DNA of 64,000 bases from Dehalococcoidia bacterium (GTDB lineage: Bacteria; Chloroflexota; Dehalococcoidia; Dehalococcoidales; JAUYDJ01): positions 644,343 to 708,342 of the forward strand of contig CP070693.1 in NCBI GenBank assembly GCA_020353235.1, written 5' to 3'. The position numbers and the translations under genes are program-made. Positions 7,050 to 20,880 of this stretch are shown here, in pieces. Within the stretch, counting starts at the first letter, position 1. Every line of letters starts with the position of its first letter. A model generated the notes under the pieces. That model was not told where the DNA came from and made no database searches. It was given only the letters and a program-made list of their open reading frames with translations.

Positions 7050-7125
7050 TGGTGGAGCTGAGGGGACTCGAACCCCTGACCTCCTCCGTGCAAAGGAGGC
7101 GCTCTCCCAGCTGAGCTACAGCCCC
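7050..7125 (-). tRNA. tRNA-Ala (anticodon UGC), CCA encoded
   Basis: The reverse complement folds as a cloverleaf: GGGGCTG TA GCTC AGCTGGGA GAGC G CCTCC TTTGCAC GGAGG AGGTC AGGGG TTCGAGT CCCCT CAGCTCC ACCA. It has the G3:U70 alanine identity pair, a TTCGAGT T-loop and a 76-nt length. Confidence 0.97.
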
Positions 7126-10026: not shown

Positions 10027-10476
10027 CTACTTTTTCTCTGCTCTCCTTTCCTTCTGACGACAGCGATAGCAATAGCCGGTCATCCGAACCTCGGTACCGA
10101 CAATATCAAAGTCCCTGGCTGCGGAGACACTGCGTTTGACCTGACGCGACAGGGGATAATGAAACTCGATAACCCGCCCGCAGCCGAGACACACCAGGTG
10201 GTGATGCTCGGAAGGGGGCTTCACCTCATAGTGGTGGTGGGCTTCATCAAAGTGGACTTCATCCACCAGACCCAGTGCCTTGAACTTCTGCAGGGCGCGG
10301 TAAACCGTGGACAGGCTGATACCAGGCTGTCTCTCCCGGGCCTGACGGTAGAGCTCATAAGCATCAAGGTGTCCCTTGCCCCGGCGGATAATCTCCAGCA
10401 GCAACGCCCGCTGCTGGGTGACTCTCAGCCCAGCGCTGCTTAATGCCCTTCGGTTCTTCTCTTTAGACATAACCAT
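10027..10476 (-). CDS. fur: Fur-family metalloregulator
   Basis: Winged-helix N-terminus (RVTQQRALLLEII), a His-rich sensing region (HHHYE...EHHHLVCLGCG) and a C-terminal CxxC (CYRCRQ). Its stop abuts the feoA start. The start is uncertain: ATG 10476, ATG 10470, or the track's TTG 10482. Confidence 0.85.
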   Translation of the reverse strand: MVMSKEKNRRALSSAGLRVTQQRALLLEIIRRGKGHLDAYELYRQARERQPGISLSTVYRALQKFKALGLVDEVHFDEAHHHYEVKPPSEHHHLVCLGCGRVIEFHYPLSRQVKRSVSAARDFDIVGTEVRMTGYCYRCRQKERRAEKK

Positions 10477-10486
10477 AATCAATTAT
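10475..10486 (-). promoter_or_regulatory. Possible Fur-box-like inverted repeat (ATAAT-N2-ATTAT) in the fur leader
   Basis: ATAATCAATTAT lies inside TAGTAATAATTGATTATGG (minus strand). It resembles GATAAT/ATTATC Fur hexamers and sits between the promoter and the start codon. Confidence 0.3.
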
Positions 10487-10510
10487 TACTAATGCGACCC
10501 ATTTGCATCT

Positions 10511-10539
10511 ATTATAGCCGACAGCTGAATATTTGTCAA
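10511..10539 (-). promoter_or_regulatory. Consensus sigma70-type promoter for fur-feoAB
   Basis: On the minus strand: TTGACA(10539-10534), 17-nt spacer, TATAAT(10516-10511). Both hexamers match consensus perfectly. Confidence 0.6.
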
Positions 10540-10561
10540 CTAACCGGGAAAATTATCGGGC

Positions 10562-11380
10562 TTAGCAGCGTTTTTTTATTTCGGGAATAGCATCCTGGGC
10601 TGCCTGAGCCCCCAGCGAAATAAGCTTCTGGACCTGATGAAAGTCACCAAACCCGATATGGGCTACCTGAGGCTCAATGACAATATCAGCCCCCTCCAGG
10701 CAGTGCTCAACCAGGAGATAAGAACCGATATATACCGACTGCACCATCACGTTAATGATGTTGAGCTTTTTGAACTCCCCGCCCCGCCGGGCGCGGACAT
10801 CTGGCTCCGGAATTACGTTCACCGCGATGATGACATCGGCTCCCATCTGTTTCAGGACGCTCACCGGTACCGGGTTGACCAGCCCGCCATCAACCAGACA
10901 CCGGTTCTGCCACTTGACCACGGTGAAGACTACCGGAATTGAAATGCTGGCCCTTACCGCTTCTAAAACCGAGCCCTCGTTGATGACCACTTCCTCACCA
11001 GTCATAATATCGGTAGCCACACAGGCCAGGGGGATTTTTAAATCGGCAAAGTCGACATCGCCCATCTTCCGCTTCATGAACTCTTTAAGTTTCCGGCCCT
11101 GAATAAAGCCGGTTTTGGGCAGCGTCAGGTCGGTCAGCGGCGCCAACCTTTTCCAGCCCACCTCCAGGGCTAAAGCCCTTATCTGATGGGCGTCAGTGCC
11201 CCGGGCATAGAGGGCACCCACCGCCGCCCCGGCACTGGTGCCGGCAATCAGGTCAATCGGGATGCCTTCTTTTTCCAAGACTTCCAACACGCCAATGTGG
11301 GCCAGCCCCCGAGCCGCCCCACTACCCAAAGCCAGACCTATCTTCTTCTTTTTGCGGAACAACTCAGCCCACCTCTTCAT
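10562..11380 (-). CDS. Patatin-like phospholipase
   Basis: GLALGSGAARGLAHIGVL oxyanion loop, GTSAGA nucleophile elbow (GxSxG) and a DGG catalytic Asp motif (LVDGGLVNPVP). The start overlaps the upstream gene by 17 nt. Confidence 0.85.
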   Translation of the reverse strand: MKRWAELFRKKKKIGLALGSGAARGLAHIGVLEVLEKEGIPIDLIAGTSAGAAVGALYARGTDAHQIRALALEVGWKRLAPLTDLTLPKTGFIQGRKLKEFMKRKMGDVDFADLKIPLACVATDIMTGEEVVINEGSVLEAVRASISIPVVFTVVKWQNRCLVDGGLVNPVPVSVLKQMGADVIIAVNVIPEPDVRARRGGEFKKLNIINVMVQSVYIGSYLLVEHCLEGADIVIEPQVAHIGFGDFHQVQKLISLGAQAAQDAIPEIKKRC

Positions 11381-11876
11381 CTACGGGCCGCTTTTCGGCC
11401 CAGAACCAGGTGTTAATATTGAAGAAACTGACCGGCGCCAGAAACAGAGTAGCCAGGGCTAATAACAGCATCACCACATCCAGAACCAGGGCACCGATGG
11501 TCAACATTCTAACCCGGGCAAGCTCCTCCAGTACACCGAAACAGCCGCAGGGCTCGGCGCCGAATCCGTGAGCAATCAGCCAGCTGTTATTGGCGATAAA
11601 GATGGCGATCAGCCCCACCGCCAGAACGGCGGCCGGCCGCGCCAAGATGCCGCTGATTAAGAGCAAGCCGACAGCTATCTCAATAACCGGAAGCCAGAGA
11701 TAAATCAGCGGGGCGAAGGGCAGTACGAAATCGGCGAAGGGGGTAAAGAAAATGAAGAAGACATCATACTCATTGAATAATTTACCCGCCCCGGCAAGAA
11801 GAAAGACCAGCCCCAGGACGATAGCTGCCCCCGGCCCGAGCCAGCGTTTAAAGCGAACTGATTTTATTATCCCCAT
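11364..11876 (-). CDS. MauE/DoxX-like integral membrane protein
   Basis: 170 aa with about four TM helices and an EPCGCFG motif typical of the MauE family. Its ATG is embedded in the HerA 3' end (GAGGAGCTATGGGGATAA). Confidence 0.6.
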   Translation of the reverse strand: MGIIKSVRFKRWLGPGAAIVLGLVFLLAGAGKLFNEYDVFFIFFTPFADFVLPFAPLIYLWLPVIEIAVGLLLISGILARPAAVLAVGLIAIFIANNSWLIAHGFGAEPCGCFGVLEELARVRMLTIGALVLDVVMLLLALATLFLAPVSFFNINTWFWAEKRPVDEEVG

Positions 11877-13477
11877 AGCTCCTCAATGTCCTTTTCCGCC
11901 TGCTCTTTAGTCTCCGGCCCTTCCCCTGATGTCAGCTCTTTATATGACCGGACTGAGCCATACTCCCTAGTCTTGATGACCACCGGCATCGGCAAGGCAT
12001 GGCCAAAGATTAACGCCTGCTGTCTTGATTCCAGCCTGGCGAGCACCGATTTAAGCTCGCTTTTGCCCGATACCCCAGCCAGGACACTATCTATATCACG
12101 CTCGTTGTCCAGAAGGCAGGCAATCTTGGTCCCCATCTGCGACATTACCTCACTGTCAATGCCACTGGGGCGCTGGTCAATCACCAGCAGGGTGACATTG
12201 TACTTGCGCATCTCGCGGGCGATGGTACCGAAGATGGTCTGGCTGGAGACCTCCGGGTTGAGGAACTTGTGCGCTTCCTCAATGGTTATCACCAGGGGAC
12301 GGGGGCGTGCACCAGCCTCACCCATCGCCCTTTCCATCCGGTCGCGATACTGGGCATGGATGCGGCGGGTAAGCAGATTGGCCACCAACACATAGGCGGT
12401 AATATCGGTATAGCGGCCGAACTCCAGCACCACATTTATCCCCCGGTCAAGATAGTCCAGAGCGCTCTTTACCGGATTATCCGGAGCCTGCGGCACCAGA
12501 AAGGGGAGCCGGCCAATAGTCTGCAGCCCCCGCAGCAGGTTCTGAAAGGTGCTCTCATGAATGTTCAGCTCCCGGAGCAGTTCTTTCGCCTCTTCACTCT
12601 CCCTCAGGTCCAGAGTGCTCTGTAACCAGTTTTTACCCAGCCGCCGGCGCAACTGGTATACCGCTTCTACGGCGGGCTCGGTAAGATTCAGCGTCTGCCG
12701 CAGCAGGGTGACATCCTCCGGCTCGATTTCGTCATAGCCGATTCTGACCACAAAATCGGTGCTCACCTTGCGACGTCGTGAACTCTCCTCATCAAGGGTG
12801 AAAACGGCCACGCTGGAGGGGAAAAGCTGTTTTAGCGACTTGACCACCCGGCCCCCCTCGCTGCTACCCGCCCAGCCGTACTCACTGTGCATGTCAAAGA
12901 GTAAGTTCACCGCCGTACTCTTCTGCAGCATGCCGATGAGCAAAATGCGGGTTAAGAAAGTCTTGCCGGTGCCACTTTTGCCGAAGACACCATTGGAGCG
13001 CTTGACCAGTTCCTCCAAATTAAGGCAGATCTTGGTCTCCATATCCAGCGGCGTGCCGAGGTAGAACCTTCTCTCGTCCTCTCTACCGAAGACCAGCTCC
13101 ACATCCCGCTGTGAAGCCAGATTTACCACTGAGAAGTGACTGGGCACCGTCTTCACCGGCTGGGGCCCTTCCAGCATACTGGCCGCATCACCGCCAATGG
13201 TGAGGTAGGGCATCACCCGCAGTGTGCCGTAGGTCGCCGTGCCGGCCAGCACCTCAGCGATAAAGTCATCAGAGACATCGGGCGGGGTAATGGCCAGCCT
13301 TGGGTCGGTTACCCCCAGACTGATATCGGTTATCATGCCGAAGAAGCGCCGCTTCTGCCCTTCAACGGTGACATAGCGCCCCACCGCCATATCCTCCACC
13401 GATACCGGGCGGTCCAGTTTGACCTCTACCCCCTTCTCCAGGGAACCGGAGGTAACTATACCCAGCCGCTCGGTCAC
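11867..13477 (-). CDS. HerA-like (DUF87/FtsK-HerA superfamily) hexameric ATPase
   Basis: N-terminal HAS-barrel-like segment (LGIVTSGSLEKGVEVKL...GRYVTVEG...FFGMITDISL), Walker A GKSGTGKT, Walker B/EEAH (VITIEEAHKF) and LLVIDQRPSGID. The GTG start overlaps the upstream stop (GTGA). Confidence 0.8.
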   Translation of the reverse strand: MTERLGIVTSGSLEKGVEVKLDRPVSVEDMAVGRYVTVEGQKRRFFGMITDISLGVTDPRLAITPPDVSDDFIAEVLAGTATYGTLRVMPYLTIGGDAASMLEGPQPVKTVPSHFSVVNLASQRDVELVFGREDERRFYLGTPLDMETKICLNLEELVKRSNGVFGKSGTGKTFLTRILLIGMLQKSTAVNLLFDMHSEYGWAGSSEGGRVVKSLKQLFPSSVAVFTLDEESSRRRKVSTDFVVRIGYDEIEPEDVTLLRQTLNLTEPAVEAVYQLRRRLGKNWLQSTLDLRESEEAKELLRELNIHESTFQNLLRGLQTIGRLPFLVPQAPDNPVKSALDYLDRGINVVLEFGRYTDITAYVLVANLLTRRIHAQYRDRMERAMGEAGARPRPLVITIEEAHKFLNPEVSSQTIFGTIAREMRKYNVTLLVIDQRPSGIDSEVMSQMGTKIACLLDNERDIDSVLAGVSGKSELKSVLARLESRQQALIFGHALPMPVVIKTREYGSVRSYKELTSGEGPETKEQAEKDIEELWG

Positions 13478-14076
13478 GGTCTTATCCTCCCCAGAATTGC
13501 CTTCAGCTGGCTCAGCTGGCCGCTGAGCAGTATGGCCAGCTCTCTAGCGGCGGCTACCAGAAAGTCGTGCTGGTCTTCATAGGCCTGACTCATCTGGCGT
13601 AGTACCGCCGCCACAAGCTCATCATTAGAAATAGGAAGCGGATTGCTAATCAGGATATTGAGGAAGTCAAAGGACTGGCTGAAATCTTTGACTTCCGCTG
13701 GGGGGCAAAGATAGACAAAGCCGTGGATTCGGGCTGGCTTGGGGGGCAGGTAGTGATAGAGCCTGTCGTCCTGCCGGTGCCCGACGACCAGGGTGCTGAA
13801 TTCACTTCTAAACAGCTTCATCAGCTGGGGGCTCTGGCGGTAGATTCCCTCCTCAGACGCTTCGTCTTTGCCGCGGGCAATGGGGCGCCGCCCCGGCTCA
13901 AGGCTGGTGGTAGTAGCATTATAGACCACGCCGTAAAGCTCCACCGATCCGTCTCTGGTCTTTACCAGGCTGCCCAGCGGCGGTGACTGGTAAAGTTCAT
14001 AGCACTGCGCCACAAAGTCAGTGGTGCTGGCGGCAATAACTTCGCCAACTCTATCCGGGTGTGTAGAAGTGCTCAA
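13474..14076 (-). CDS. Hypothetical 200-aa protein with a beta-barrel-like N-terminus, translationally coupled to the HerA-like ATPase
   Basis: TTG start 8 nt after GAGG. The N-terminus VGEVIAASTTDFVAQCYE...LGSLVKTRDGSVELYGVVYN resembles a HAS-barrel. I recognised no other motif. Confidence 0.6.
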   Translation of the reverse strand: MSTSTHPDRVGEVIAASTTDFVAQCYELYQSPPLGSLVKTRDGSVELYGVVYNATTTSLEPGRRPIARGKDEASEEGIYRQSPQLMKLFRSEFSTLVVGHRQDDRLYHYLPPKPARIHGFVYLCPPAEVKDFSQSFDFLNILISNPLPISNDELVAAVLRQMSQAYEDQHDFLVAAARELAILLSGQLSQLKAILGRIRP

Positions 14077-14082
14077 TGGTGA

Positions 14083-14170
14083 ACCTCATCCCCTTAATCT
14101 CCCTCTCCTTGATAAGGAGAGGGAGAAGAGTGGATTAAGAAGGGCTGCGCCCTTCTAACTTCCCCTTCTT
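14083..14170 (-). repeat. Intercistronic two-hairpin repeat, copy 1 of 3
   Basis: ACCTCAtcCCCTTAATCTCCCTCTCCTTgatAAGGAGAGGGAGaagagtggaTTAAGAAGGGCtgcGCCCTTCTAActtcccc. Hairpin 1 is 14099-14125 (12-bp perfect stem) and hairpin 2 is 14135-14158. It is homologous to 58154-58240 and 59515-59612. Confidence 0.8.
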
Positions 14171-14294
14171 TGCCCTTTTTGCCCTGCTTGCTTCGCCCTT
14201 GCTTAGTTCTCTTTCTTAACTTTTGACTGTTTGGGTTTCTTTATGTTCTTTCTTCCCTTCTTGCCCACCTCGGCCTCCTCCATAATGAAATACT

Positions 14295-14744
14295 TTAATC
14301 AGCGCTTTCCTCAGGCGCAACCAGTATCCGGACTGCCCAGCGGGTATTGGCGGCATTAATCATGAGGTAAAATGTCCCCTTCCCTGCTATGGTAAAGACA
14401 TCAGCCTCCCTTTCCCGCGAATTGGCTGCGATGATTACCGGCATATCCGGCTCTTCTACATTGTAGACCATTATCTGAAAAGTGCCTATTGACTGGTCAT
14501 TGAGCTCCGAGGGTACATGCACCCAGTCAATAACCCAGGACTCACTCTCAATGGTAAACGGCTCGGTGGTTTTGGTACCAATCCCCGTCCACTCGGCAAC
14601 CAGCCCCGCCCCCGCCAGGACTATCACCTCCGGTGGCACCTCTGATTCCGCCTCTGCCGGGGCTTCCATCTTCGGCGTCTGCATCAGGCAACCCCCCAGC
14701 CCCAGAACCACGATAGCTGAAATTAGTAATATGGCTTGTCGCAT
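14295..14744 (-). CDS. Small lipoprotein of unknown function
   Basis: Signal peptide with lipobox (MRQAILLISAIVVLGLGGC). The mature part looks beta-rich and shows no recognisable motif. Confidence 0.7.
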   Translation of the reverse strand: MRQAILLISAIVVLGLGGCLMQTPKMEAPAEAESEVPPEVIVLAGAGLVAEWTGIGTKTTEPFTIESESWVIDWVHVPSELNDQSIGTFQIMVYNVEEPDMPVIIAANSREREADVFTIAGKGTFYLMINAANTRWAVRILVAPEESAD

Positions 14745-14753
14745 TTTAACCTA

Positions 14754-15953
14754 TTAAATCCACCTCGTTCTTTTGCTCTGGCTCTTGGCGGAAGTGAGGG
14801 TGGGGAGGCGTTCCGCAACCAGTGATGACTCCACCAGCTGCCAGAAGTTCTCCCGGTCGGCGGTGGTGATTACTGCCTGCTCGTGGGCTTCACTCAGCGC
14901 CACCGGGTAGCCCAGCCCGCGCCAGCACTGGTCCAGAACCAGACTGTGGACCAGATTAAGCAAGCTTTCATCGGTAGCGACCCACTTCGGCATCTCTATC
15001 CGGGCAACCTCATCCTCCAGCCTGATATAGCTGAAACAGACCTGGTGCTCGCCGTAGTGCTTGCGCACCACCGATGACTGGCTGATAAAGACGGGTGACC
15101 GCTGCCCTTCACCCAATAGATTAAAGAAAAGCTCCCGGTCCTGAACCCCGGCTACTTTATCGCACTCTTTTTCCTTACCCGGCGGGCAATTAAGGTCACA
15201 GTCAGTAGGCTCATAAGGGCACAGCGCCAGACGGAGCACATTGACCACATCGGTGCTGCGTGGAAAGCTGATGTAGCTGGCCAGGGCAAGCCGACGCTGC
15301 TTACCTAGCTTCCTTAATTCCTCAAGGTGGCGCAGAAAGCCCTCCCCCAGCATGGCCCCGGTGACAAAATCGGGGTAAGCCTCCAGCCCCCACAGGATAA
15401 GCGAGCCATCAACCAGCGCCAGCAACGGGCTATCCGGGGGCAGCCCGGCCGCCAGCTCAGCCAGCTGATGGCACTCCTCAACCGCCCGCTTAATGCCGAG
15501 TAGCGTCCCTTCAATGGGCTGCTCCCGCCCCCTGGTGGGCACGACTACCAGGTCTTTGTCCTCGGCATAGAGACGGGGAAAGCTGTCTAAGAAAGCGCTA
15601 GGCTCCGCCCCGTAATGAAGCCAGGCGGCGCCGATATTAATTAAGTAGCACCTGGTGGACTTATGGCGGTCAACATCAATATGGGAGCCATCGGTAGCCA
15701 GAACATTGAATTCCGAGGGCGGGGGCGGGGCTTCACAGCCCTGACTGAGTCCATCTAATAAGTCAGCCACCAGCCAGGTAATCTTACCCCGACTGATGGC
15801 GATTTTTCTTTTAAGGTCGGCAAGGTCAATAGCTTGGCTAGCGGCAATCTCCAGGGCATACTGCCGCCGACGGTTTCTCTCTTCAGTGCCCACTCTCAGA
15901 CGGGCAACCATACCACCAACCTGCGCCGCCAGCTTGCTTAAATCCAGTGACAT
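14754..15953 (-). CDS. NurA-like nuclease domain protein
   Basis: 399 aa with the NurA-type N-terminal catalytic pattern (NVLATDGSHIDVD) and a second DGS motif (LALVDGSLILWG). It lies in the same strand block as the HerA-like ATPase, and NurA-HerA pairing is established in archaea and some bacteria. Confidence 0.65.
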   Translation of the reverse strand: MSLDLSKLAAQVGGMVARLRVGTEERNRRRQYALEIAASQAIDLADLKRKIAISRGKITWLVADLLDGLSQGCEAPPPPSEFNVLATDGSHIDVDRHKSTRCYLINIGAAWLHYGAEPSAFLDSFPRLYAEDKDLVVVPTRGREQPIEGTLLGIKRAVEECHQLAELAAGLPPDSPLLALVDGSLILWGLEAYPDFVTGAMLGEGFLRHLEELRKLGKQRRLALASYISFPRSTDVVNVLRLALCPYEPTDCDLNCPPGKEKECDKVAGVQDRELFFNLLGEGQRSPVFISQSSVVRKHYGEHQVCFSYIRLEDEVARIEMPKWVATDESLLNLVHSLVLDQCWRGLGYPVALSEAHEQAVITTADRENFWQLVESSLVAERLPTLTSAKSQSKRTRWI

Positions 15954-15983: not shown

Positions 15984-16013
15984 AGTATAAAGCATTAAAG
16001 TCGGCTAACTCAA
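15984..16013 (-). promoter_or_regulatory. Candidate promoter for the NurA-like gene
   Basis: On the minus strand: TTGAGT(16013-16008), 18-nt spacer, TATACT(15989-15984), about 30 nt upstream of ATG 15953. Confidence 0.35.
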
Positions 16014-18625: not shown

Positions 18626-19537
18626 CTAGCTTTTACCATGAAGCGGAAGCCACTGCCAAAACCGACCCCACTCCCCCCTCTCCCAGACCACCAGCAGGGA
18701 AGGGGCGATGCCGATTGAGCTGAAGGTTCCGGCCACGACCCCTATCAGTAGCACCGCGGCAAAATTCTGGATGGATACGCCCACAAAGAGCATCAGGGCT
18801 AAGACCACAAAGAGAGTGGTTAGACTGGTATTGAGGGAACGGCTGAGCGTCTCAACTAAGCTGCGGTTGACCACCACCTCAAAGTCAGGGCTGACCCCCA
18901 GAGTCTGGTTCTCACGTATTCGGTCAAAAACGACCACCGTGTTGTTCACACTGTAACCAATAACGGCCAGAATGCCGATGATGAATTTTAAATCAACCTC
19001 CCAACCCAGCACACCACCGATAATGGAAAAAATGCCCAGCGCCATCAGCGTGTCATGGATGAGGGCAATCACGGCACAGCTGCCGTAGTGAAATGGTTTG
19101 GGCATACGGTGAAATGCCCAGGTAATATAAAGCAAAATACCGATGGCAGCCACCGCCACCGCAATGGCGGCATTCTGTGCCGTTTCCCGGGCTACCATCG
19201 GCGACACAGTATTAAATTCCGTCTCCTGGAGCTGCCCGAACCTAGCAGCAAGGGCTTCCTCCAGTGCCGTTTTCTCCTCCCCAGTCAGCTCGTGTGTCCG
19301 AATAATATAATCGCCCGCCTCGGTATGCTGAATAAGGGCGTTGCCGTAGCCCAGACCGGCTAATTCCTGTCTCAGGTCACCCAGTTCCACCGCCTGCTCA
19401 AAGTTCATCCTCACTATTGAGCCACTGCTGAACTCAATCCCGTACCTCAGGCCAAAGGTGGCCAGCGAAATAAAGCCGACCAGGATAATCAGCCCCGAAA
19501 GAGCAAAGAAGTAGAACCTTTTACCGATAATATTCAA
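18626..19537 (-). CDS. secF: Protein translocase subunit SecF
   Basis: NIIGKRFYFFALSGLIILVG...GIEFSSG... followed by the SecD/F membrane domain. I chose TTG 19537, which follows AGGAAGGAAATAACA and lies 2 nt after the secD stop. The track's 370-aa form overlaps secD. Confidence 0.9.
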   Translation of the reverse strand: MNIIGKRFYFFALSGLIILVGFISLATFGLRYGIEFSSGSIVRMNFEQAVELGDLRQELAGLGYGNALIQHTEAGDYIIRTHELTGEEKTALEEALAARFGQLQETEFNTVSPMVARETAQNAAIAVAVAAIGILLYITWAFHRMPKPFHYGSCAVIALIHDTLMALGIFSIIGGVLGWEVDLKFIIGILAVIGYSVNNTVVVFDRIRENQTLGVSPDFEVVVNRSLVETLSRSLNTSLTTLFVVLALMLFVGVSIQNFAAVLLIGVVAGTFSSIGIAPSLLVVWERGEWGRFWQWLPLHGKS

Positions 19538-19539
19538 TG

Positions 19540-20880
19540 TTATTTCCTTCCTAAGTACGGGCTGAACAGGGAAGCCCGCTGTGCCAGGGCAGTGCCCACG
19601 AACAGGCGCAGCAGGGTACGGGTAACCACAATGGCGGTGAACATGCTTACCGCCACGCCGATGGCCAGAGTCCAGGCAAACCCCTTCACCGGCGCGCCGG
19701 CCACCACCACACTGCCCACCCAGAAGAGAATGGCGCAAACGATAAAGGTGGTTACGTTGCTATCCCTGATTGCCGTCCAGGCACGATTAAAGCCGGCCTC
19801 AATGGCCGCCCCCAAAGTACGCCCCCCTCTCAACTCTTCTTTAATCCGCTCGAAGATAAGCACATTGGCGTCTACCGCCATGCCGATGGACAGGATAAAG
19901 CCGCCCAGTCCCGCCAGGGTGAGAGTGACCGGCCACAGCTTGAACAGCGCCAGGACCAGTACTCCGTAAAAGACCAGCGTCAGACTGGCGATAACTCCGG
20001 GCAAACGGTAGTAAATCATCATGAACAGCATCACAATGATGATGCCGATTATGCCCGCCTTAACACTCATATCAACGAAATCGGCTCCCAGTATGGGCGA
20101 TACCGTCTGGTCATAGAGTATTTCCAGAGACACCGGCAGACGGCCGGCATTCAACTGGCTTGATAATGCTTCCGCCTCAGTAAAGCTGAGCCCCTCAATC
20201 TGCCCCTTATCGGTAATCACACTGAGGACGACCGGGGCAAGCGGTCGGCCATCCTCCCCCCGCAGGGACTCATCCCCCTCAAATATGCCCAGCGGCTGCT
20301 GCCCCTCTACCAGGCGGCTGGTAATCTTCTCCGAAATCAGGCTCCCTTCCTCATCCCACTCAAAAACGAGCAATACGCCACCCAGCCTGTCCTGAGTGAC
20401 AAAGGTATTTTCCTTGAAATAGCGGCTGGTCAGTTCCTTCTTTTCACCACCAACCAACGCCGTAGCCGGCTTCCACCGACCCCGCTCGTTTTCCCACTTC
20501 GCCTCTTCCCCTTCATCAGCCAGCTCGCCAAACTCGAGCAGCGCCACCCGCGAGAGGCGTTCTTTTTCCTTGTCACTGATACTAAGCCCGGGCAATTCCA
20601 CCAGTATCCGGTCCTGACCCTGCCGCTGGATAACCGGCTCGGTAACGCCCAGCGGATTGATGCGGTTACCTATAACCTCAACCACCCCATCCATAACGTT
20701 GTCCACCTCCGCCGGCTCCACCGCCGATAAATCAGCCTGGTAAACGACATGGATACCGCCCTGCAAATCAAGCCCCAGCCGCATTGCCTCCCGACCAAAC
20801 AGGGGGTAGAGAAGGGAAACAATTGCAAAAATAAAGAGGCCGGCGATGCCTATCAGGACCAAGGTATTTTTTCTCAGCAT
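19540..20880 (-). CDS. secD: Protein translocase subunit SecD
   Basis: LGLDLQGGIHVVYQ, a periplasmic P1 domain and a C-terminal SecD/F transmembrane domain (DANVLIFERIKEE). Confidence 0.9.
   Translation of the reverse strand: MLRKNTLVLIGIAGLFIFAIVSLLYPLFGREAMRLGLDLQGGIHVVYQADLSAVEPAEVDNVMDGVVEVIGNRINPLGVTEPVIQRQGQDRILVELPGLSISDKEKERLSRVALLEFGELADEGEEAKWENERGRWKPATALVGGEKKELTSRYFKENTFVTQDRLGGVLLVFEWDEEGSLISEKITSRLVEGQQPLGIFEGDESLRGEDGRPLAPVVLSVITDKGQIEGLSFTEAEALSSQLNAGRLPVSLEILYDQTVSPILGADFVDMSVKAGIIGIIIVMLFMMIYYRLPGVIASLTLVFYGVLVLALFKLWPVTLTLAGLGGFILSIGMAVDANVLIFERIKEELRGGRTLGAAIEAGFNRAWTAIRDSNVTTFIVCAILFWVGSVVVAGAPVKGFAWTLAIGVAVSMFTAIVVTRTLLRLFVGTALAQRASLFSPYLGRK

Follow-up and report, generated by a model that had tools for sequence, protein, structure and literature searches.

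A likely NurA–HerA end-resection module with an ATPase-less HerA-like third gene in Dehalococcoidia

Do six tightly packed genes for a nuclease, a lipoprotein, a 200-residue protein, an ATPase, a membrane protein, and a phospholipase form one system, or is there a smaller conserved unit among unrelated neighbors? We asked this question of a 64,000-nucleotide stretch of a Dehalococcoidia bacterium genome (contig CP070693.1, positions 644,343 to 708,342 of the forward strand), hereafter the window, in which an earlier note made from the sequence alone had described the six genes as a tightly coupled cluster and a candidate undescribed system. We consider it likely that the locus encodes a vertically inherited three-gene NurA–HerA module for DNA end resection, with an undescribed third subunit consisting of a HAS barrel only, which we call P200, and that unrelated genes follow.

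The minus strand carries all six open reading frames (ORFs), which span 10562–15953 and correspond, from 5' to 3', to 1) a NurA-family nuclease of 399 residues (14754–15953), 2) a lipoprotein of 149 residues (14295–14744), with a signal peptide and the lipobox LGGC, 3) P200, of 200 residues (13474–14076), 4) a HerA-family hexameric translocase ATPase of 536 residues (11867–13477), 5) a MauE/DoxX-family membrane protein of 170 residues (11364–11876), and 6) an RssA-like patatin phospholipase of 272 residues (10562–11380). The last four genes overlap. The P200 stop (TGA) and the HerA start (GTG) share the GTGA at 13474–13477, a 4-nt overlap; the ATG of the MauE-like gene (11876) lies 10 nt within the 3' end of HerA, right behind GAGGAG; and the patatin ATG (11380) creates a 17-nt overlap with the MauE-like gene. 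The G+C content of the cluster (0.54–0.58) falls within that of the window (0.51–0.60), which indicates a native composition. All of this agrees with the earlier note, as do Pfam profile searches for its four domain calls (NurA, HerA, MauE, and patatin). Short gene overlaps are frequent in compact genomes, and an overlap alone is no proof of functional coupling.

Genes that travel with HerA

A scan for HerA in one genome per GTDB species detected at least 573 relatives. We used the best 80 of these, which are Dehalococcoidia genomes or metagenome-assembled genomes with a HerA identity of 57–96%, and searched their 8-kb flanks with the window proteins using tblastn. P200 was found immediately upstream of HerA in 65/65 loci that had enough flank, with a median gap of 27 bp, and NurA was upstream of the P200–HerA pair in 43/45. 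Patatin, counted as adjacent when within 700 bp downstream of HerA, was present in 21/61 loci, and its presence depended on relatedness, with 14/18 at a HerA identity of at least 75%, 7/21 at 68–75%, and 0/22 below 68%. The MauE-like gene was found in 5/61 loci, each with a HerA identity of at least 78%. A homolog of the lipoprotein was detected only in the 96%-identical relative (L001), with weak partial matches in two other loci (L010 and L018). The reverse test, in which metagenome contigs were anchored on P200, gave a similar picture. HerA came directly after P200 in 60/61 loci, and NurA was upstream in 15/17, with patatin in 13/27 and the MauE-like gene in 3/27. The conserved unit is therefore NurA–P200–HerA, and patatin, the MauE-like protein, and the lipoprotein are lineage-specific neighbors. 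Of the coupled cluster described in the earlier note, the P200–HerA pair and its linkage to NurA stand; the other three genes drop out. Their patchiness across loci argues that their adjacency is an inherited local gene order of one Dehalococcoidales lineage.

The module itself appears to be chromosomal and passed down vertically, with strong purifying selection acting on it in Dehalococcoidia. No other protein of the region is as well conserved as HerA, whose identity tracks that of the HDAC-like gene in its flank (r = 0.92). Close relatives are also syntenic for fur-feoAB and for the HDAC-like/LysE-family flanks.

Two places in the locus vary. The first is the spacer between NurA and P200 (14077–14753 in the window, where it holds the lipoprotein gene as a lineage-specific insert), which is a variable insertion spot of 0 to 4.3 kb. 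NurA abuts P200 directly in 16 loci, and elsewhere inserts of 0.1–4.3 kb separate them. Depending on the genome, the spacer contains an AAA_21/AAA_15 ATPase with a 177-residue protein, an N6_N4 DNA methylase fused to Mrr_cat, a HicB antitoxin with a small upstream ORF, an IS200-like Y1 transposase, a 23S-rRNA-IVP protein, or small lipoproteins (examples of the variable spacer in other Dehalococcoidia are L035:5441–7249, L029:5861–7120, L057:6651–7309, L037:6863–7405, and L021:6300–6659). The second is the position behind HerA, where the MauE-like gene of the window was inserted, recently and locally, ahead of patatin. In loci without patatin, the next gene encodes anthranilate synthase (trpE), glutamate dehydrogenase, a thiolase, PEPCK, a solute-binding protein, an amidohydrolase, an Eco57I-type methylase, or others, and it is often on the opposite strand.

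These counts bear on the proposal that the six genes, or the quartet of P200, HerA, MauE-like, and patatin genes, are one defense-like system in which HerA would scaffold or activate a membrane-attacking patatin via a membrane partner. The physical overlap of four genes in the window and the existence of HerA-effector systems (SIR2–HerA and DUF4297–HerA) speak for it, as does the patatin itself (PF01734, 9.3e-34, 117.7 bits against a threshold of 27.7), whose GTSAG serine motif and DGG aspartate motif are intact and which shows weak PADLOC matches to phospholipase effectors (4.6e-10). However, the complete quartet occurs in 5/61 genome and 3/27 metagenome loci, all of them the closest relatives; patatin is missing in 40/61 genome loci and, like the MauE-like gene, from all ten of the distant loci described below; the gene downstream of HerA is otherwise variable and housekeeping; and the lipoprotein lacks conservation. 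The stable synteny of this chromosomal region, its native composition, and the very high conservation of HerA also argue against the proposal. The best NCBIfam match of the patatin is RssA (157.7 bits, 3.7e-46, under the equivalog cutoff of 272), whereas it scores 29.1 bits against the CBASS lipase model, for which the cutoff is 200. It has no adjacent CD-NTase/cyclase or signaling partner, its neighbors being HerA/MauE and fur, and by sequence it appears closest to RssA-type housekeeping lipases rather than to CapV. As for defense annotation, PADLOC returned only generic HerA and phospholipase matches, the other four proteins (NurA, P200, lipoprotein, and MauE-like) having none, and NCBIfam scores were likewise far under the family cutoffs. 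The earlier note had itself named what would refute its proposal, and the counts go that way: patatin and the MauE-like gene follow HerA in a minority of the loci, and in distant relatives the ATPase stands in canonical NurA–HerA–Mre11–Rad50 repair clusters. We regard a single six-gene or four-gene system as highly improbable, and the "system" of HerA, membrane protein, and patatin as an accident of local gene order in one Dehalococcoidales lineage rather than a defense candidate worth pursuing. No association between HerA and patatin was found in the literature, where search coverage was incomplete.

The MauE/DoxX-family protein matches both MauE (5.6e-16, 59.4 against 27 bits) and DoxX (3.8e-7, 31.1 against 23.6 bits) in Pfam. 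It carries a Cys-Gly-Cys (CGC) motif (EPCGCFG) and has a weak NCBIfam match (E 0.007) to HvfX-type proteins for maturation of copper-binding, ribosomally synthesized and posttranslationally modified peptides. The 149-residue lipoprotein matched no family in Pfam, PADLOC, or NCBIfam.

The two enzymes and their putative ATPase-less partner

HerA and NurA are presumably both active, as judged by their conserved motifs. HerA matches DUF87 (1.1e-28, 101 bits) and HAS-barrel (2.8e-8, 34 bits) in Pfam, and its Walker A (GKSGTGKT) and Walker B (hhhhEEAH) motifs are invariant in 70 sequences. It belongs to none of the curated NCBIfam HerA subfamilies, since it scores 57–85 bits against the equivalogs helicase_HerA, HerA_Thermprot, HerA_antiphage, and HerA_antiphage_2, for which cutoffs are 800–970. 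NurA was identified by Pfam (3.7e-29, 102 bits against a cutoff of 21), and a sequence search of the PDB gave no significant match for it. In 25 orthologs, distant ones included, D88, E160, and D182 are invariant and H357 is at least 90% conserved; by analogy these are putative catalytic residues. The C-terminal GYP..AH motif of NurA aligns weakly with NurA of Sso (2YGK) in a profile search (E 0.29).

P200 is, according to its predicted fold, a HerA paralog that has the HAS barrel and a helical domain and lacks the RecA/ATPase core. By sequence, its match to the Pfam HAS-barrel (PF09378) is below the gathering score (E 4.5e-3, 17.5 against 25.2 bits), although HAS-barrel matches (E<0.1) were detected in 10/29 diverse members of the family; a profile search of the PDB with P200 gave no match. 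UniRef labels the ortholog from Dehalogenimonas etheniformans a "Helicase HerA barrel domain-containing protein." A first AlphaFold2 model built from 35 close homologs (at least 77% identity) had a predicted local distance difference test score (pLDDT) of 49 and was discarded. When the alignment included 44–55%-identical cluster representatives, the model reached a pLDDT of 88.4 and a predicted template modeling score of 0.84. In this model, a β-barrel at about residues 9–123, with an inserted helical hairpin, precedes a helical domain (126–198). P200 lacks a P-loop. A Foldseek search against the PDB gave HerA chains for all top 50 matches (E 1.2e-6 to 2.8e-4, probability 1.00), with alignments of 125–214 columns and TMq of 0.35–0.44. 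The best was HerA of T. kodakarensis (9X1L, E 1.2e-6), and others included HerAs of Sulfolobus (4D2I), D. radiodurans (7WRW), and the SIR2–HerA and DUF4297–HerA systems.

A gene fusion bears on the relationship between P200 and HerA. In protein P0313 (786 residues), a P200-like domain (hhalign probability 96%, E 4.5e-9) forms the N terminus and is followed by a complete HerA with its own barrel. Its gene (L093/L094:6001–8361) lies on a 63-kb phage-like contig assembled both by JGI and by Logan (2162886008/SRR404247). This contig, which has no NurA, carries many small same-strand ORFs, an Amidase_2 lysin-like gene, bpMoxR, a UvrD helicase, and a DnaG primase. A pattern scan of IMG/VR viral contigs did not find the fusion, and a metagenome scan with one distant P200 found nothing. 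Together with the reciprocal 1:1 gene linkage and the start/stop overlap, the fusion argues for a physical partnership between P200 and HerA.

How might the three proteins work together? Given the conserved motifs, HerA would act as a hexameric double-stranded DNA translocase, as established for the family, and the NurA nuclease would dock on its HAS-barrel face, which in solved NurA–HerA complexes is the NurA docking site (PMC9960219). Through the GTGA overlap, translation of P200 would be coupled to that of HerA, which P200 may bind at roughly 1:1. Most likely, it would add a barrel ring on the HAS face and thereby lengthen the DNA channel; alternatively or in addition, it could form or regulate the platform on which NurA docks. 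The P200 family comprises about 3,000 sequence clusters, and no family model matches it at a curated threshold. We propose tentatively, with confidence a little short of even, that P200 is an obligatory third subunit that gives the HerA hexamer a second HAS-barrel ring and would define a three-component NurA–P200–HerA machine, ancestrally acting with Mre11–Rad50, that is found in Chloroflexota, other bacteria, probably archaea, and a phage-like fusion and was overlooked because family models do not match it. In a literature search of incomplete coverage, we found no description of a third NurA–HerA component or a stand-alone HAS-barrel partner and no account of a NurA–P200–HerA module in Chloroflexota. 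P200 thus appears to be an undescribed partner. The joining of HerA, membrane protein, patatin, and lipoprotein in one defense-like system, as the earlier note suggested, is not supported.

Distant relatives and the likely role

Among representatives of 50%-identity clusters, searched exhaustively with HMMER, 283 HerA relatives were identified at E<1e-30. We examined the context of eleven distant relatives with 30–45% HerA identity, with DNA from ten distinct loci. P200–HerA was found in 9/10 of these, nurA–herA linkage in 5/10, and SbcD/Mre11 directly downstream of HerA in 6/10, followed by SbcC/Rad50 where the contig continues. The most complete cluster, in the bacterial locus L081, is NurA–P200–HerA–SbcD/Mre11–SbcC/Rad50–YbaB–RecR, where ispF is present as well. 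NurA–P200–HerA–Mre11–Rad50 is seen in L089 and in L086/87, which is probably archaeal since its deoxyhypusine synthase passes the equivalog cutoff and a PPS_PS gene is present. L088 has P200–HerA–Mre11–Rad50, and L091/92 has P200–HerA–Mre11. L082 has NurA–HerA–Mre11–Rad50 without P200. The triad NurA–P200–HerA adjoins Tn7-like TnsA/TnsB genes (L083:1–1700) in L083 and genes for PrimPol, an HNH-repeat protein, and the type I restriction-modification (R-M) protein HsdR (L090:2437–3984, 10154–13623) in L090. P200–HerA alone is seen in L084 and, on a short contig, in L085. The proteins of about 200 residues in these loci are homologs of P200, with hidden Markov model E-values from 3.5e-6 to 5.7e-28 and, for L081, an hhalign probability of 97.8% (E 8.9e-13). 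The proteins downstream of HerA pass the SbcD subfamily cutoff (TIGR00619) and match SbcC/Rad50 models.

Two of these loci deserve a comment. L082 (L082:4676–10093) is the most distant relative, with 30% HerA identity; its NurA and HerA genes are separated by 131 bp that contain no gene, which argues that P200 is absent from some branches of the subfamily. On the metagenomic contig of L088, which has 31% GC and is possibly archaeal, an actin-fold protein (Pfam Actin, with a weak NCBIfam "syringactin" match) is encoded beside P200–HerA–Mre11–Rad50 (L088:38–1108, minus strand).

Since several of the distant loci carry Mre11–Rad50 with P200–HerA, the ancestral context would be a classical double-strand-break repair cluster to which P200 was added, and the likely role of the module would be the processing of double-strand breaks or stalled forks. 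The Mre11/Rad50 linkage would have been lost in Dehalococcoidia. We favor housekeeping DNA processing because of vertical inheritance, fixed chromosomal position, very high conservation, and the linkage to Mre11–Rad50, RecR, and YbaB in relatives.

Several points weigh against this interpretation. Neither the window nor the 8-kb flanks of HerA in the 80 Dehalococcoidia loci contain an Mre11 or Rad50 gene, so that homology with distant relatives is all that would connect the Dehalococcoidia module to Mre11–Rad50. Some distant members have mobile or defense-like settings (L083, L090, and the phage-like L093). Contact between P200 and HerA is an inference, and although P200 aligns in register with the N terminus of its cognate HerA, the alignment falls short of significance (hhalign E 0.044). 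Among solved HerAs, the nearest one by sequence belongs to the Paenibacillus anti-phage SIR2–HerA system (8WIV, 1.5e-23). Finally, about 15 genomes have HerA and patatin genes that overlap or adjoin each other (−6 to +40 bp), which makes their cotranscription likely in that clade, where a lineage-specific functional link may exist.

We rejected an anti-phage annotation of HerA based on its top PDB match because the match to 8WIV is limited to a generic C-terminal ATPase segment (residues 388–507) and HerA is far below the equivalog cutoffs.

The defense-like settings raise the possibility that the NurA–P200–HerA triad is primarily an immune nuclease-motor system directed against mobile elements rather than a repair system. 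HerA ATPases are recurrent defense scaffolds, L083 and L090 have mobile or defense-like neighborhoods, one fusion is phage-borne, and the spacer between NurA and P200 elsewhere draws R-M, toxin-antitoxin, AAA_15/21 ATPase, and IS200 inserts. Yet at least 573 species genomes have relatives of the triad, which in the 80 Dehalococcoidia loci keeps a fixed place on the chromosome and has a HerA identity, at 57–96%, that tracks that of housekeeping neighbors; Mre11–Rad50 is linked in 6/10 distant loci, with RecR and YbaB in L081; and NurA and P200 have no PADLOC match. We consider a primarily immune function unlikely. The mobile or defense-like surroundings of L083 and L090 are not shared by the Dehalococcoidia loci or by the triads linked to Mre11–Rad50.

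The tight spacing of HerA and patatin could instead mean that patatin, with or without the MauE/DoxX gene, was secondarily recruited to the HerA operon in one Dehalococcoidales lineage and is coregulated with it, for example for membrane remodeling in a DNA-damage response, while the module elsewhere works without it. The genomes with the −6 to +40 bp same-strand gap have a HerA identity of 71–83%, and a sequence scan found no terminator-like site between HerA and patatin and no convincing terminator within the cluster. Downstream, the stretch from the end of patatin to the beginning of fur contains a site that matches the sigma-70 consensus at 12/12 positions (TTGACA-17-TATAAT, 10511–10539, minus strand); this site would mark the downstream boundary of the unit and provide fur with its own strong promoter. 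Upstream of NurA, only a weak promoter-like site is present (15984–16013, minus strand), a 9/12 match to the consensus. However, about half of even the close relatives no longer have the two genes side by side (patatin follows in 13/27), and the fur-feoAB and HDAC-like/LysE-family flanks are syntenic in the same genomes, so that plain inherited order explains the pattern. Furthermore, no mechanistic link between an RssA-like lipase and HerA was found in the literature (search coverage incomplete). Functional recruitment is thus quite unlikely. Under our preferred interpretation, an inherited module followed by unrelated genes, patatin is probably the final gene of the transcript in the window organism, and the lipoprotein, the MauE/DoxX protein, and patatin are probably cotranscribed with the module here without a conserved functional link.

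A 12/12 sigma-70 match just 5' of fur-feoA-feoB is unusual, and this predicted promoter suggests that fur-feoAB is transcribed apart from the cluster. Elsewhere in the window, a SecF-like ORF (18626–19738, minus strand) begins about 200 nt inside a SecD-like ORF (19540–20880, minus strand) and has an Arg/Gly-rich N-terminal extension; the true SecF start probably lies further downstream than the listed ORF start. A tRNA-Ala(TGC) gene is present at 7050–7125 (minus strand).

What is noteworthy at this locus is a large HerA subfamily with a coupled, ATPase-less barrel protein. Current NurA–HerA models place a NurA dimer directly on the HAS-barrel ring, and they would be incomplete for this subfamily if P200 is part of the complex. 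NurA–P200–HerA is a concrete candidate for DNA-end processing in Dehalococcoidia.

Comparison with known systems

The HerA anti-phage systems (SIR2–HerA/Nezha and DUF4297–HerA; 8WIV, 8J4U, 8XAU, and 8ZIQ) likewise combine a HerA ATPase with an adjacent partner. In contrast to these systems, none of the six window proteins has a SIR2 or DUF4297 domain, the window HerA scores 84.6 bits against HerA_antiphage (cutoff 800), and the distribution of the module is vertical and core-like, whereas that of the anti-phage systems is sporadic. As for the patatin, it shares the fold and the GxSxG and DGG motifs with RssA/YchK-type lipases (COG1752), while it differs from CapV of CBASS both in its score, far under the CBASS lipase cutoff, and in having no signaling partner next to it.

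In archaea, Deinococcus, and Thermus, NurA–HerA is a well-characterized complex of two proteins. The archaeal HerA–Mre11–Rad50–NurA operon (Sulfolobus and Pyrococcus/Thermococcus; 4D2I and 9X1L) resembles the clusters of L081, L086, L088, and L089, but these have a different gene order and include P200. Moreover, Mre11/Rad50 is unlinked in the window and the 80 Dehalococcoidia loci, and the window HerA scores 73–74 bits against the archaeal NCBIfam equivalogs, for which cutoffs are 800–970. The D. radiodurans pair drNurA–drHerA (PDB 7WRW, 7WRX, and 7F6D; PMC9960219) is, like the window module, bacterial and chromosomal and consists of NurA and a HerA with HAS-barrel and RecA-like domains, and the window module retains intact motifs for both ATPase and nuclease. 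The two HerAs have diverged to the point that phmmer gives no match between them at E≤0.001. While drNurA–drHerA is described as a two-gene operon, the subfamily in the window adds a stand-alone HAS-barrel/helical gene between NurA and HerA.

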